The position numbers and the translations under genes are program-made. DNA of 61,470 nt, the filler included, from Globobulimina sp. (taxonomy: Eukaryota): NCBI GenBank assembly GCA_003354225.1. It is 21 parts of 21 records of this genome, joined end to end, with 100 filler letters (N's around TTAATTAATTAA, not from the genome) between each part and the next. Parts side by side here need not be neighbours in the genome. Positions count along the whole stretch, not along the records: positions 1 to 2,834 come from PIVH01004691.1; 20 more parts are not named here. One strand, 5' to 3'. Below are positions 192 through 49,752 of this stretch, in pieces. Within the stretch, counting starts at the first letter, position 1, and each line of letters starts with the position of its first letter. The notes beneath the pieces are model-generated. The model had not been told where the DNA came from and did not search any database. It was given only the letters and a program-made list of their open reading frames with translations.

Positions 192-1070
192 TCAAAATTG
201 ATTTCGATCAATTTTTCTGATTTGCAATTGTAGAGCAAAGGATATTTTATTAATTGTGCAATCTGTTGGGATTCTGAATTGATTAGAAATACTTTCTATT
301 CTATGTTGAGAAAATGAGAAATATTGAACATCATTTGTATTTTTAGTATTTTTATTATACACTCTCTTCAACTCTCCAATTCCGATAATTTTATATTCTA
401 CAATCAACTCAGTGATATCTTTTGGTAATTTTAATAATTTCAACCATATTTTTAAATTATTTTGGTTATATTGACATAAATTTAAACATAAACACCAACA
501 TCCAAATACATCAGATTCTGTAATATTATTTGATATTTTATTTATATTTACTATCCATAAATATTTTATTCTGCGATTTTTATGTAACAATTGATGATAG
601 TCAGACAATTTATATTTCTTTAAATATTTGACATGGATTAGATCCAAAATCACAGTAAATTGTGATGGATGACGGTCAATGAATACTTTTGGTGATGAAT
701 GGCGGTCAATCTTTGTTAAAATACATGTTCCTCTGTTCCATGAATCATTATTATATTTGTATTGGTAAAATATCGTACAATTATTAATATTTTCAGGCAT
801 TCGATGAATTTTAATACATAAATGTGGGTAATGTTTTTTTTTATTGCCTGATGGATAAAATACACATTGAAATGTAATATCATTCACCATAATTGGCTTG
901 GAAGCATAATATAACCCATGTTTACAAGACGTAATTTTCGAAGAAGGTAAAGTCCAAATTAATGTTGTGTCAAAGTATGACATCATAAGTCCAATCACAT
1001 CATCAGGCATTATACATTGTACATATGAACGGCTATATCCATACCATAATAATTCTGCTATGGTTGCCAT
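192..1070 (-). CDS. Protein with N-terminal GY-x-R...P-x-D-hI motif and two MATH/TRAF-like domains
   Basis: Intronless ORF, likely ATG at 1070 (MATIAELL). Segments LIWTL..ASKPI..FQCVFYPSG and YLWIV..ESDVF.CWCLCL resemble tandem MATH beta-sandwiches. Confidence 0.55.
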   Translation of the reverse strand: MATIAELLWYGYSRSYVQCIMPDDVIGLMMSYFDTTLIWTLPSSKITSCKHGLYYASKPIMVNDITFQCVFYPSGNKKKHYPHLCIKIHRMPENINNCTIFYQYKYNNDSWNRGTCILTKIDRHSSPKVFIDRHPSQFTVILDLIHVKYLKKYKLSDYHQLLHKNRRIKYLWIVNINKISNNITESDVFGCWCLCLNLCQYNQNNLKIWLKLLKLPKDITELIVEYKIIGIGELKRVYNKNTKNTNDVQYFSFSQHRIESISNQFRIPTDCTINKISFALQLQIRKIDRNQF

Positions 1071-1127
1071 TTGAAAAACGTTTGAGGACTTACTCTGTGA
1101 TTTGTAAACTGTTATCACTTTCCTTAA

Positions 1128-2708
1128 ATGGCACACCCATCAGCACCAAATCCGAATAGGCAGATCATGCCAAATATGCCCCCACCACCAATGGCAATGG
1201 CACACCCTCCATTTCCTCATCCTCCGCCAGGAATGCCAGGAATGCCACCAATGCCAATGCAAATGCCACCGATGCCGATGCCAATGCAAATGCAAATGCC
1301 AATGCCACCCATGATGCCAAATGGAATGGCTCCAGGGATGCCGCCGATGCCTTTTCCTCCAATGCCAGGAATGTTTCCACCAAATATGATGTTTCCCGGA
1401 ATGAAAAAAGGAAAAGGACCTCAACCAATTGATAAATGGGCAAATGTTGCACCAAATAACACCATTTATGTTAACAATTTAAATGAGAAAACATCCAGAG
1501 ACGGTATGTCTGTATCCATTCATTTTACTTATTTCTTTTATGCGTTTGTAACTGTAACAGAGACCGTCAATGGTTTACGAGAAGTATTTGGTCAATTTGG
1601 TAAGGTGTTGGATGTTGTGTGTTATACCAAAATTAAACGGTGCAAAGGGTATGGACTTATCTTATAATTTAATTTGAATTTTAGTGCAAGGATACATAAA
1701 TAAATAAAAACACAAAAAACACAGACAAGCATGGGTTGTAATGGAAAAAACTGAATCCGCTACAAAAGCAATACACGAAATGCGGAATTTTATTTTTTTC
1801 AACAAACCAATGGTATGTATCATATCCATGCATTTCTATTAATTGCCACTCATTAATTGCACTCGTAATGATCCATGCATTTGTTTTTATTTTTTAAATA
1901 TTGTTTGTTTGTCTTTTTTGTTTAAACATATTGAATGAATGAATGAGTGGACTGATCATTGCAGCTTTTATCTTATCCATTTTTTGTATACATTTTATCT
2001 GTTTAATTGCTGGTTATTTTAAATTGTTTGGTTTTTTTGTGTTACTAAAAATATAATGGTTTCGGTATGTCACAATATTTTGTTATCTGTCGATATCTGT
2101 CAATATGCAATCAGAGAGTGTCGTATTCAAAAAGTATATCTGATGCAACATTAAAACGTGACGGAAAACAAGCTCCGCAAAGACAGCGTCCTCCAAAAAA
2201 GAAAAGTTAGGTTTACTATGTCGATCATTCCATCATTGTATCACTATCATTGCAATTGTATTGTTAATTTGTCATAGAAAAGAAGAAAATTGTGGTTCAA
2301 GAAACCATCATAATAAAAAAGAAGAAAAAACGTAAGAAATCAAAGGATAAAACAAAAAAAGGTGATGATGATAATGACCAAGACATTGATATCGATATGA
2401 AAAATAATCATAATCATAATCACAGCCATAATCATAATGCGCACAAAGAGAAGAAACGAAGACAGAATAATATGGCTGCCCCAAATAAGACATTATTTCT
2501 ACAGAATCTCCCAAAGGCCGTAACAAGTGAAGAAATGCATAGATTATTTATAGCATTTCCCGGTTTTCGGGGAGTTAATTTAATTGAAAATAAGCCAGGT
2601 ATTGGATTTGCTGAATTTGACGATACTTATAATTCTTCGAATGCTCAACGATCACTTAATGGATTTACAATTCATACACAAGATATTATTGTTGAATTTG
2701 CTCAATAA
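1128..2708 (+). CDS. SNRPA/SNRPB2: U1A/U2B''/SNF-family spliceosomal protein (2 RRMs); exons 1128-1503, 1561-1648, 1725-1812, 2115-2205, 2278-2708
   Basis: Spliced translation gives PNNTIYVNNLNEK...FGQFGKVLDV...KGQAWVV...ATKAIHEMRNFIFFNKPM|RVSYSK (RRM1) and PNKTLFLQNLP...FPGFRGVNLI...GIGFAEF (RRM2). Four GT-AG introns (57, 76, 302, 72 nt) preserve the frame. Confidence 0.93.
1850..1871 (+). promoter_or_regulatory. Intronic hairpin mimicking U1 snRNA stem-loop II (putative U1A binding site)
   Basis: TCATTA-[ATTGCACTCG]-TAATGA: 6-bp stem with a 10-nt loop matching the U1 SLII loop AUUGCACUCC at 9 of 10 positions, inside the U1A-family gene itself. Confidence 0.7.
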
Positions 2709-2834
2709 ATAAAAATAAACATTGTATTGTACCTATTAATGTTATGTAATTTAAAATCATTTAAGCAATCTGTCATTGATCCTGGCTCAACGTGTCCCAA
2801 CTTATAATAACTAGTTTCACATAGACACCGTCAG

Positions 2835-16890: not shown

Positions 16891-17128
16891 TTCAGTTCAA
16901 ACTTCAAATGTCGATTAAATTGTCGAAATCTTAGAATAATCTTAGCTGAATTTCTCATGCTTTTGTTTCTGACATACCCGAATCTGAACTGAGTGTCATC
17001 GATAACCTTAAAATTGATATCGTTGCTGAGACGAATGAAATTTATGGATACAAGACATACAATGGATATATAGAAAAAATCAGAGGTTAAAACAACAAAA
17101 AATAAAGGACTAACCCCCTTAAATTAAT

Positions 17129-20436: not shown

Positions 20437-20870
20437 NNNNNNNNNNNNNNNNNNNNNNNNNNNNNNNNNNNNNNNNNNNNTTAATTAATTAANNNNNNNN
20501 NNNNNNNNNNNNNNNNNNNNNNNNNNNNNNNNNNNNATGTCGGGTATTTAATGTTGACATGAAAAAAGCTTGGTGGATTTATTTTTTTTGCTCCACACTA
20601 CTGTTTCACAAGTAAGAAAACTCCACAATTCTGTTCCGCAAAAAATGTGCCCTCAATTATTTGGTTTTTTTTTGCTTGTTCTGAATTCTCATCTACTTTT
20701 ATCTCCCCTAAACCACTAAAAGTTCAAAGGATATGATGTTCGGAAAATGGGGTTTCCTTCATACAACGAAATTAGTTGTTCAAAATTCGTGTTTCTTTAA
20801 TTAAAACTAGTTTCAAAGTTGGTTCTCAAATTCTGGTGCTCCGAAAGCGTTTCTTAAATTATTCTGTCTT

Positions 20871-21004
20871 GCAGGCACATTTTTGATTTTTTGCCTCCTT
20901 TTTTATCTCAGCGTAAATTTGTCTTTTTCTTATGATATTTCGCACCAAAAAGACAAATTTGCGCTGAGATAAAAAAGGAGGCAAAAAATCAAAAATGTGC
21001 CTGC
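20871..21004. mobile_element. 134-bp near-perfect palindrome (MITE-like foldback)
   Basis: GCAGGCACATTTTTGATTTTTTGCCTCC...GTCTTTT and its reverse complement; arms about 56 bp with one mismatch. No target-site duplication recognised. Confidence 0.7.
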
Positions 21005-21700
21005 TAGTATAGTCTCTGAGATATGATTACTCACCGTCAGTCTACAGCCGATAATGACCCCTCCCACCGCTGGTATATCGCAACGCAATCTGTGCAATAC
21101 TCGCACCATTGCATTTCTTGCCAATCTCAGCCAAGACTGCCAACAATTCCTGAAACAAACTCCACTCATTATTGCTCCACAAACTTATCCATTTTTTATA
21201 CTTTTTCAAACTCGGAGTGTCCAAATCTCGCTTCTTTGGCTCTGCTGACTTTCCCAACCATTTATTACTCAAAAAGCCGCCCAATAAAGTGCCTAAAAAT
21301 TTGGACAAAAACATAAAATGGTTAGTTTATTATTCGAATTAGGAATGTGTTTATGTACCATTCTTCAAACAATACCATTCTTCAAGTGATGAGTTTTATA
21401 TCATTCTTCAAACAATAGTCAACCATTCTCTTCTCTGCTCTCCGAATGATGGAGTACGGCACATTTAGGCTATCTTTATATTCTCCACATTTTCTACGAT
21501 GTTTTGCATATTTTCTGTGTTGAAATTGCACAGTGCAATGTTTTTGATTTTGCCCTACTCTACAAAATGAAATGCAGCAAATTCAATGCATTGGTTTTCA
21601 TTCTTAGCAACGCTTTATTGATGGCACTTTCTGTCATTTCAAACGAGACTTTCTCATTTTTGCGCAGAAAAGTATATAGCGATACAATGGTTGAATAGTC
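21005..21700 (-). pseudogene. Degraded aldo-keto reductase family gene
   Basis: Fragments AINKALLRMKTNALNLLHF, GTLLGGFLSNKWLG..EP, SIAQIALRY and PAVGGVIIGCRL lie in different frames with stops, and end at the palindrome. Confidence 0.7.
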
Positions 21701-48137: not shown

Positions 48138-49752
48138 ATGTCATTGTCCTCCGCATCATCGACAAGATCGTCAACATCGTCAACACCAACTATTACAGGC
48201 TATCGTAATCGTGTCAATACTTTAATATATGCACCGCAATTGCAAGTGGATGTTGCGCGCCAAGAATTGAATGAAAAATGTTGTCTTATTCGAATGCAAT
48301 ACCATCCGTGTTTTCGTGTAACTTTTGAAGTTATCTGGAGATTACTGTTCATCATGGATTTATTCTTTGATATCGCATTATGTCTTCAATACACAACTTT
48401 CAGCACAATTTGGTGGTTATTTGTATCTGTTTTTTGTATTCCTTACATATTGTCATCAATTGTATTATTTCTACCTTTTCATCGAAGAATTACCGACCGA
48501 GAAAAAGCTATGTCCAGACCATGCCCAATTTTATACGACATAACAATTGTCATATTATACAGTATATTTTGCCTGCCATGCATTGTTCTTTTCGACTTAT
48601 ACATTTGTACTCGATTAATTATCACTGATTTGTCAACAACACGATATTTTTTGTATTACTGGAGATTGAAAACTTTGGTCGAATTGACTTTTGAAGCAAT
48701 TCCTCAAACCATTCTATTAATATGCATTGGTTTGGGACTACTTGATACGTCAAACGCTGCTGCATCAAATATAAATGTTCAAATGTTATATGGTTCATTG
48801 TCAATGTCGATTTTATGTCTAATATGGTATTGCATGGTAATCTATTCTGGCGCACAAAGCACCAAATTATCAGTATTTGACTATTTATTCAAATACTATA
48901 TTATGCAGGGAATGGATATGATACCTTATCAAGAAGCAATCACTCAAAATTTATTAAGCGATTTTATATTAACATCGGAAAATTTAACGTTATCGGAATG
49001 GACACAATTAATAAAAGATCTATTCCGAAATTTTAGTATTGTACAGTTTGATATTTCGGGTCAACAGCATTTACACTTTTCTTTATGGCTGGAATTGTTT
49101 GAATCTTTGGCTAATAATAACTTAACAACCTTGAAATTGAGAGACTGTTTTATCTTTCATCCAGATAACAGGCTTTCCAATTCAATTAAAAAAAAACATT
49201 CTTACCAATTCAACCAATCTGAACAGAATGCAAATAACTCAAATAAGTCAAATAACAGTTTAAATTTATTAAAAGCTGGATTCACTTCGTTGATATTAAA
49301 TGTACCGTCATTGGTTATTATTGATATTGGCAATAATTGTTTATCGAATGTACTCCGTGGACTCATAAAACCGATATCAAAATTAAAAAAGTTAAAAGAA
49401 TTATATTTAGATAGAAACAGATTATTCGAAACAGAATTAATTGAAAACGAATATACTATGTTGCTCAGAGGTTGTGTATCGTTAACAATATTGGATTTAT
49501 CTGGTAATCAGTTAAACGATACAGATATAGATATAATATGTAATTCAATTCAAAAATGTAAAGAGAAAAAGAGATTACAATCATTGGAAAAAATAAATTT
49601 AAATGAAAATAAGATCACCATTCATGGCGCAAATAAATTATTAAAAACTATACAACAATTTAGAAAATTAGCAATTACATTACAGCAAAATAATATTAAG
49701 GATCAGGTATTTGAAGATATGCAATCAAAATCTGCTATCAATATATTGATTG
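48138..49752 (+). CDS. XK-related membrane domain fused to RI-like leucine-rich repeats (3' partial)
   Basis: MDLFFDI, ELTFEAIPQTILL (XK ExxPQ motif), SLSMSIL; LRRs LTTLKLRDC, LKELYLDRNRL, LTILDLSGNQL, LEKINLNENKI. Confidence 0.7.

Follow-up and report, generated by a model that had tools for sequence, protein, structure and literature searches.

Stem-loop II-like hairpins in the transcript of a foraminiferal U1A-family gene as candidate sites of self-recognition

The U1A-family gene and its long intron

We analyzed a stretch of 61,470 nucleotides (nt) from the genome of Globobulimina sp. (GenBank assembly GCA_003354225.1), composed of 21 parts joined end to end and referred to here as the window. 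Our subject is a gene of the U1A/U2B''/SNF family in this window and two hairpins in its transcript that resemble a target of U1A, stem-loop II of U1 small nuclear RNA (snRNA). The window is AT-rich eukaryotic DNA (about 27-38% G+C), and positions are counted along its whole length. The gene is laid out as follows.

1128-2708, plus strand: coding sequence of the U1A/U2B''/SNF-family gene (357 amino acids [aa], two RNA recognition motifs [RRMs], five exons)
1128-1503, 1561-1648, 1725-1812, 2115-2205, and 2278-2708, plus strand: exons of the gene model
1813-2114, plus strand: intron 3 (302 nt, GT..AG, phase 0, 27% G+C), defined by spliced contigs
1504-1560 (57 nt), 1649-1724 (76 nt), and 2206-2277 (72 nt), plus strand: the other introns, all GT..AG
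1840-1842, plus strand: in-frame TAA, at which the exon-3 frame (1708-1842) ends with ...NKPMVCIISMHFY followed by the stop

An earlier note on this DNA had placed the gene in the U1A family, and several kinds of match agree with that assignment. When single-exon pieces were compared with Pfam families, RRM_1 was found in the exon-5 piece (E value, 1.1e-10), and the best PDB matches of single-exon window pieces were U1A and U2B''. The closest full-length relatives of the gene product are foraminiferal transcriptome proteins (54-72% identity), and a 138-aa fragment from a foraminiferal transcriptome is 87% identical to it. The gene model shares 72% identity with foraminiferal transcripts across 370 aa, and the transcriptome proteins are colinear with it over the exon junctions. 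One ortholog, P0001, contains two RRM_1 stretches (E value, 4.9e-22) and matched human U1A (3pgw_A; E value, 4.7e-33) and U2B'' (5mqf_X; E value, 1.9e-32) with both RRMs covered. Two RRMs joined by a basic linker, as in the U1A/U2B''/SNF family, are present, and the closest solved relatives over both RRMs are U1A and U2B''. On the basis of the domain matches, the solved relatives, the colinear transcripts, and the matches of P0001, the gene is, as judged from sequence, a U1A/U2B''/SNF-family member of a foraminifer-like rhizarian, equally close to both human paralogs.

In the alignment of P0001 with the human protein, the RRM1 residues TIYVNNLNEK, GQA, KPMR, and SD are kept and the RNP residues are aligned. 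A Pro/Met-rich, low-complexity N-terminal extension of ~95 residues precedes RRM1 (1128-1420, plus strand). It is common to the foraminiferal orthologs and absent from the aligned human U1A and U2B'' chains.

Intron 3 begins with a donor GT at 1813 and ends with an acceptor AG at 2113-2114. One contig in each of three public runs, X1, X2, and X3, joins 1811/1812 to 2114/2115 and so skips 302 nt. All four introns are skipped in the spliced contigs (57, 77, 302, and 72 nt, the second figure comprising 76 nt and one replaced letter), which come from two samples and whose exons are ~95% like those of the window. In a DNA run, the match to the window shows no joints. Because the joints in the X1, X2, and X3 contigs are exact, intron 3 is a real, spliced intron, and its description in the earlier note as the long intron of the gene, at 1813-2114, was correct. 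For comparison, introns average 87 bp in one foraminifer genome (PMC13746701). The interior of intron 3 has no or very low cover in the runs with spliced contigs; at 1841-1954, cross-matches of T-rich, low-complexity sequence, as in X4 record 20, may account for the low depth seen in X2 and X3.

Reading-frame analysis indicates that retention of intron 3 would bring translation to a stop after 9 intronic codons, inside RRM1. Intron 1 (1504-1560, 57 nt) is open in frame, and its retention would add 19 residues to RRM1 with no truncation. We also considered whether P0012, a 170-aa protein from a 1,070-nt contig, is a product of intron-3 retention, and set it aside as uninformative because its open frame spans the intron-3 junction.

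Hairpins and repeats in intron 3 and the 3' untranslated region

The elements discussed below all lie in noncoding parts of the transcript.

1850-1871, plus strand: hairpin 1, TCATTA/ATTGCACTCG/TAATGA, with a 6-bp A/U-rich stem and a 10-nt loop
1838-1851, plus strand: degenerate tandem copy ATTAATTGCCACTC, with one extra C within the heptamer and no hairpin of its own
1824-1835, plus strand: direct repeat copy 1, ATCCATGCATTT, exact over 12 nt and extending to 1844 at 86%
1871-1882, plus strand: direct repeat copy 2, ATCCATGCATTT, abutting the 3' arm of hairpin 1
1942-1950, plus strand: AATGAGTGG, proposed alternative-pairing partner of 1846-1854, in a (TGAA)n microsatellite (TGAA x3.8)
1958-1964, plus strand: ATTGCAG, a second family-type heptamer in intron 3, without a convincing hairpin
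2235-2260, plus strand: three ATTG[CT]A hexamers in intron 4, starting at 2235, 2249, and 2255
2718-2743, plus strand: hairpin 2 in the 3' untranslated region (UTR), with stem 2718-2724/2737-2743 and a 12-nt loop

Hairpin 1 was first described in the earlier note, and its reported position, 6-bp stem, 10-nt loop, and distance of 37 nt from the intron-3 donor are all accurate: the 5' arm spans 1850-1855, the loop 1856-1865, and the 3' arm 1866-1871. The first seven letters of the loop are ATTGCAC (offset 0). That AUUGCAC is the target of the U1A RRM1 in U1 stem-loop II, given as established in the earlier note, finds support in passages of PMC6325900 and PMC13187837, which describe recognition of this heptamer atop the stem-loop. 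As in U1 stem-loop II, AUUGCAC lies at the 5' side of the hairpin-1 loop. The loop of human U1 stem-loop II is likewise 10 nt long.

To judge how often such a hairpin would arise by chance, we defined a strict class with ATTGCAC at loop position 1, a 10-nt loop, and at least 6 Watson-Crick pairs. When the introns and 3'UTR of the gene (633 nt) were shuffled with dinucleotides preserved, a strict-class hairpin appeared in 9 of 197,468 shuffles. A product estimate agrees with these Monte Carlo shuffles: stems of at least 6 bp round a 10-nt loop occur at 41 of 58,940 window positions, and 507 intron nt x ~1e-4 ATTGCAC per nt x 41/58,940 gives ~3.5e-5 expected strict hairpins. Of the 12 ATTGCAC sites in the window, none but that of hairpin 1 has a Watson-Crick stem reaching 4 bp, even when offsets of 0-2 and loops of 7-12 are allowed, and hairpin 1 lies on the sense strand of an intron of the U1A-family gene itself. 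Hairpin 1 is unlikely to be a product of chance.

Hairpin 2, which did not figure in the earlier note, has a 7-bp stem (6 Watson-Crick pairs and 1 G-U pair) and carries AUUGUAC at loop positions 2-8 (offset 1). We take AUUGUAC to be the variant box of the vertebrate U1A 3'UTR element. Hairpin 2 is the minimum-free-energy (MFE) structure of 2709-2770 (-3.0 kcal/mol), and the stem core CAUU/AAUG is common to both hairpins. The 3'UTR is transcribed to at least 2800, as seen in X1 record 5. This record, from a ~95%-alike relative, covers 2628-2800 with three differences, of which the two listed (at 2669 and 2702) fall in the last 81 nt of the coding sequence; none is listed in 2709-2800, a weak hint of constraint on the 3'UTR. 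Directly after the 3'UTR, at 2835-2934, two runs of N flank TTAATTAATTAA, either a masked stretch or an assembly linker that hides the poly(A) region.

A looser class that accommodates both hairpins (three heptamers, offset 0-2, loop 7-13, G-U allowed, stem of at least 6) yielded two hairpins, as observed, in 12 of the 197,468 shuffles and at least one in 2,017. At least three heptamers were present in 283 of the 197,468 shuffles. Hairpin 2 strengthens the idea of self-recognition. Elsewhere in the window, looser-class hairpins at 21098 (minus strand) and 21525 (plus strand) were considered as marks of snRNA genes and rejected, as neither gave a U1 or U2 match.

The shorter motif ATTG[CT]A is also dense in this transcript. 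It occurs 7 times in 599 nt of noncoding transcript (twice in intron 3, three times in intron 4, and twice in the 3'UTR). The window rate predicts 0.94 occurrences and the shuffles 1.5; none of 2,000 shuffles reached 7. This density is supportive but soft evidence.

The surroundings of hairpin 1 are repetitive. The degenerate tandem copy reported ahead of it is present as part of an array at 1838-1864 (period 14, 2.0 copies, 92% matches), with the exact 9-mer ATTAATTGC at 1838 and 1852. By inspection, the 5' arm of hairpin 1 arises at the junction of the two tandem copies. The ATCCATGCATTT repeats, which had been described as bracketing the hairpin, exist as exact copies at 1824 and 1871, and they extend to 21 nt at 86% with a spacing of 47. 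The ATGCAT palindrome of copy 1 is able to pair with that of copy 2 and form an outer stem. A bracketing role for copy 1 is doubtful because TATCCAT recurs elsewhere ~10 nt after a GTATGT donor, namely, in intron 1 and, at 17044-17060 (minus strand), in a different gene. The first copy may thus be a general intron feature and not part of the element. Window-wide, TATCCAT is overrepresented (29 found versus 14.9 expected; 0 of 100 shuffles reached 29). It lies ~7-10 nt 3' of donor-like GTATGT or GTATCA at 1513-1519, 1823-1829, 17044-17060 (minus strand), and 48912-48924 (minus strand), and it may be a motif that introns of this genome generally carry near the donor.

A further proposal in the earlier note was that CCACUCAUU, at 1846-1854, pairs alternatively with AAUGAGUGG, at 1942-1950, and that this 9-bp pairing disrupts the hairpin as a switch. 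The pairing exists at those coordinates, within a 13-nt pairing of 1846-1858 with 1938-1950 that is 92% complementary. We rejected the switch itself: by our estimate from the base composition of the window, chance alone would give a 302-nt intron ~0.5 perfect pairings of 9 bp, the partner lies within the TGAA microsatellite, and folds that include the pairing, which is part of the MFE structure of 1813-1960, are no better than shuffles (z, -0.56).

The ATTGCAG heptamer at 1958 was examined as a mimic of U2 stem-loop IV and discarded, as inspection yielded at best a 3-bp stem. An acceptor-like TTGCAG overlaps this heptamer, and a consensus donor, GTATGT, stands at 2066; together they would delimit a putative 101-nt cassette, or poison exon, at 1965-2065. 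An internal GTATGT is expected ~0.1 times in intron 3 by composition (our estimate), and no joint supporting the cassette occurs in the spliced contigs of X1 to X3.

Possible feedback and its relation to known systems

The two hairpins suggest, and do not prove, that the U1A-family protein senses and limits its own production. That they are real self-binding sites for negative feedback is a reading that we place slightly short of probable. The identity of the gene, the splicing of intron 3, the sites with their rarity in shuffles, and the stop codon are established here, whereas binding, an effect on splicing, and feedback are all inferred. The pre-mRNA would carry two mimics of the snRNA loop, the AUUGCAC hairpin in intron 3, accompanied by the degenerate second site 14 nt upstream, and the AUUGUAC hairpin in the 3'UTR. 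Protein not locked into small nuclear ribonucleoproteins (snRNPs) would have a free RRM1 and could bind these sites, paying roughly 2-4 kcal/mol to hold the weak A/U stem with its loop open. Occupation of the intron site might slow or block removal of intron 3; the retained intron would then stop translation after 9 codons, inside RRM1, giving a useless product that would probably be degraded. The 3'UTR site may add an effect on 3'-end formation like that of the vertebrate polyadenylation inhibition element (PIE). The net outcome would be negative feedback on free protein.

The energetic price named above comes from constrained folding. When the 10 letters of the loop were held unpaired, the local MFE structure was exactly hairpin 1 plus the outer ATGCAT stem. 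This two-stem design has an energy of -3.9 kcal/mol and places the degenerate heptamer copy in a 16-nt one-sided bulge. Relative to unconstrained folding, the constraint costs 2.1 kcal/mol in the local stretch and 4.1 kcal/mol when the entire intron is folded, which would be small relative to a tight RRM-RNA interaction.

The nearest precedent is the PIE, through which vertebrate U1A regulates itself by means of two stem-loop II-like stretches in its own 3'UTR (PMC6884704, PMC5071671). The present case resembles it in the protein family, in the copies of an snRNA-loop motif within the protein's own pre-mRNA, and in having two nearby sites, here candidate ones. The PIE, a 3'UTR element set at a fixed distance just upstream of the poly(A) signal, presents its two motifs in internal loops of one conserved stem, binds two protein molecules, and blocks poly(A) polymerase. 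In contrast, the best site here is a terminal hairpin loop on a weak A/U stem within an intron, and of the two intronic copies, 14 nt apart, one is in a terminal loop and the other, with its extra C, falls in the one-sided bulge of the two-stem design. As to location, hairpin 1 is intronic, whereas hairpin 2 lies in the 3'UTR, where transcripts run past 2800 and N begins at 2835. Rfam holds a U1A PIE family, and no match to it was found in 1100-2830 at E values up to 10. The element is not a PIE member, given this negative search, the misplaced position of hairpin 1, and an architecture that does not fit. The earlier note had called the design distinct from the PIE, a claim that is not secure because control through the 3'UTR hairpin might still follow a PIE-like route.

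Feedback through introns is known for other proteins. Feedback of this kind is reported for yeast RPL22 paralogs (PMC13630204): an RNA-binding protein inhibits splicing of its own pre-mRNA, or that of its paralog, by binding an intronic stem-loop. The present case would be similar. RPL30 is a further yeast ribosomal protein with intron feedback. These systems differ from ours in that the protein family is another one and the RNA mimics rRNA there and snRNA here. Within the U1 snRNP itself, U1C and U1-70K are reported to cross-regulate by alternative splicing (PMC3798272). As we propose here, levels of U1-specific proteins are tuned there by unproductive splicing of their own transcripts; unlike here, where no alternative joint was seen, that mechanism is reported to involve a conserved cassette exon and an alternative splice site to which the U1 snRNP binds.

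Alternative explanations, implications, and neighboring features

Several results weigh against self-recognition. Hairpin 1, when forced, has an energy of -1.1 kcal/mol, and the local MFE structure is a different 5-bp pairing at -2.0 kcal/mol. Its pair probability is 0.34-0.50 in 30 nt, about 0.05 with the flanking exons, and 0.00 in the whole intron (0.00-0.06 over the long contexts), so that it is not a stable loop-presenting stem, and it is absent from the MFE structure of the whole intron, which folds no better than shuffles (z, +0.86). Local intron stretches (z, -1.17 to +0.24) and the 3'UTR and intron 4 (z, +0.1 to +1.0) are also no better than shuffles. The closing pair of canonical U1 stem-loop II is C-G. 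That of hairpin 1 is A1855-U1866, as the earlier note had cautioned, and hairpin 1 further departs from U1 stem-loop II in its six weak A/U-rich pairs and in lacking any surrounding U1 sequence. According to passages of PMC13187837, U1A contacts one or two closing pairs. On the protein side, the alignment of P0001 gives the family member studied here a one-residue insertion in RRM1 loop 3 relative to human U1A, a Lys aligned with the Arg of human U1A MRGQAF, and a Trp in place of the next Phe. We take this Arg to be the residue that contacts the closing pair, and the insertion together with Lys for Arg may mean that the specificity of the protein differs. Self-binding is also not a rule of the family, because Arabidopsis U1A does not bind its own 3'UTR (PMC5829640). 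No Rfam family matched the window at gathering thresholds, and a cmscan search of 1100-2830 with E values up to 10 returned 8 weak matches, none of them to PIE, U1, or U2. Finally, the joints across 1813-2114 bear out constitutive removal of 302 nt and give no sign of the redirected splicing proposed earlier; no alternative joint across the gene is listed in the contigs, which represent the fully spliced form only and drop rare forms.

The statistics, too, must be read with caution, and they bear on the possibility that the hairpins are accidental. An AT-rich intron grown by small duplications could come to hold ATTGCAC between short inverted A/U repeats, with the 3'UTR hairpin a coincidence and no binding at all. 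Intron 3 bears scars of such growth: besides the 21-nt repeat and the 14-nt tandem pair, it holds repeats at spacings of 119 and 151 and TTGT and TGAA microsatellites, and the junction of the tandem copies is what created the 5' arm of a stem that is marginal and missing from the folds predicted in context. Neither ATTGCAC (12 found versus 15.1 expected) nor looser-class hairpins (stems of at least 6 at 4 of 47 heptamer sites versus 2.6 expected) are enriched window-wide. Hexamer density is overdispersed: a coding stretch at 51-52 kb has 8 per kb, and two loci supply the 13 of 2,420 sliding 1-kb windows that hold at least 7 hexamers. The noncoding transcript segments are also rich in ATTG as such (14 versus 5.5-7.4), which makes the heptamers likelier. 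The finding was chosen from a very large scan, and the class definition is partly post hoc: the looser class was fixed after hairpin 2 had been seen, so its P value is optimistic. Against an accident stand the rarity in the shuffles of the strict class, which is what one would naturally ask about beforehand in a U1A gene, and of two looser hairpins, the ~3.5e-5 expected, and the placement of both hairpins on the sense strand of the window's one gene whose product is known to read the motif. We regard chance as a doubtful explanation, though one to be taken seriously.

Alternatively, the hairpins might be real sites for the family protein while the intron site plays no part in splicing; the protein would act through a PIE-like block of polyadenylation at the 3'UTR or through nuclear retention, assembly, or buffering. 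Hairpin 2, as a local MFE structure within the transcribed 3'UTR, fits this explanation, as does the fact that the only demonstrated U1A self-regulation acts on polyadenylation (PMC6884704, PMC5071671). The distance of 37 nt from the donor is, by our own reasoning, beyond the stretch that a complex at the 5' splice site should cover, and constitutive splicing is all that was seen. However, the best-formed canonical heptamer is the intronic one, no PIE model matched, and N beyond 2834 masks the PIE-defining distance to a poly(A) signal. A role confined to steps other than splicing seems improbable.

Far less likely is that the element is a captured fragment of the organism's own U1 stem-loop II, inserted with a 12-nt target duplication, partly duplicated, and either neutral or later co-opted. 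The exact 12-nt repeats do flank a 35-nt segment that contains both heptamer copies, and the CAUU...AAUG core in both hairpins could come from one template. Yet there was no U1 model match at E values up to 10, the first repeat copy resembles the general donor-proximal motif, and so short an insert (35 nt), lacking a poly(A) tail and any further mark of retroposition, is thin evidence. We rejected, as having next to no likelihood, an intron-hosted box C/D small nucleolar RNA (snoRNA) at ~1867-1955 with the hairpin as a processing structure. A box C-like AUGAUC (1868-1873) and a CUGA (1952-1955) do lie ~85 nt apart, a typical snoRNA size, but 1813-2114 contains no TGATGA, no terminal stem by the boxes, and no overlapping snoRNA family at E values up to 10, and the interior is mostly T-rich low complexity.

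Self-recognition through the two hairpins thus remains a plausible autoregulatory reading of a feature that is real and statistically striking, and it would be a variation on the themes of the vertebrate PIE and of ribosomal-protein intron feedback. More tentatively, a protist may have evolved self-control of U1A by snRNA mimicry independently of vertebrates and in a different layout, with a mimic in a coding-region intron as a splicing gate, retention leading to the early stop, and a second mimic in the 3'UTR; this we consider possible but unlikely. The shared CAUU/AAUG core, the A-U or G-U closing pair, and Lys for Arg may mark a covaried protein-RNA interface, from which, if it is real, one could predict how U1 stem-loop II is shaped in this lineage. 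Metagenome and prokaryote-genome scans for orthologous introns found no relative, and the homologs that were found are transcriptome proteins on ~1-kb contigs without introns. Our search of full-text literature, which left out supplements and subscription papers, found no description of an intronic stem-loop II mimic in a U1A-family gene.

The control that U1A exerts on itself is a textbook example in which an RNA-binding protein recognizes a replica of the RNA it normally binds, and it is documented only for the vertebrate 3'UTR element. An intronic mimic that works in a rhizarian would show that this solution evolves repeatedly and that U1A self-regulation is able to act at splicing instead of polyadenylation. 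It would also show that regulation can rest on tiny A/U-rich hairpins that folding programs do not detect. To our knowledge, almost nothing is known of gene regulation in foraminifera, and one hairpin with one RRM would offer a simple handle on it.

Two other features of the window were noted. An intronless open frame of 315 codons (192-1139, minus strand) lies head-to-head with the U1A-family gene, the two starts being ~10-50 nt apart; it matched no Pfam family at E values up to 0.01. The second is a long, near-perfect inverted repeat at ~20860-21015, a long hairpin or palindromic element to which many unrelated models of microRNA precursors align on either strand, scoring up to 74 bits but always below their gathering scores.

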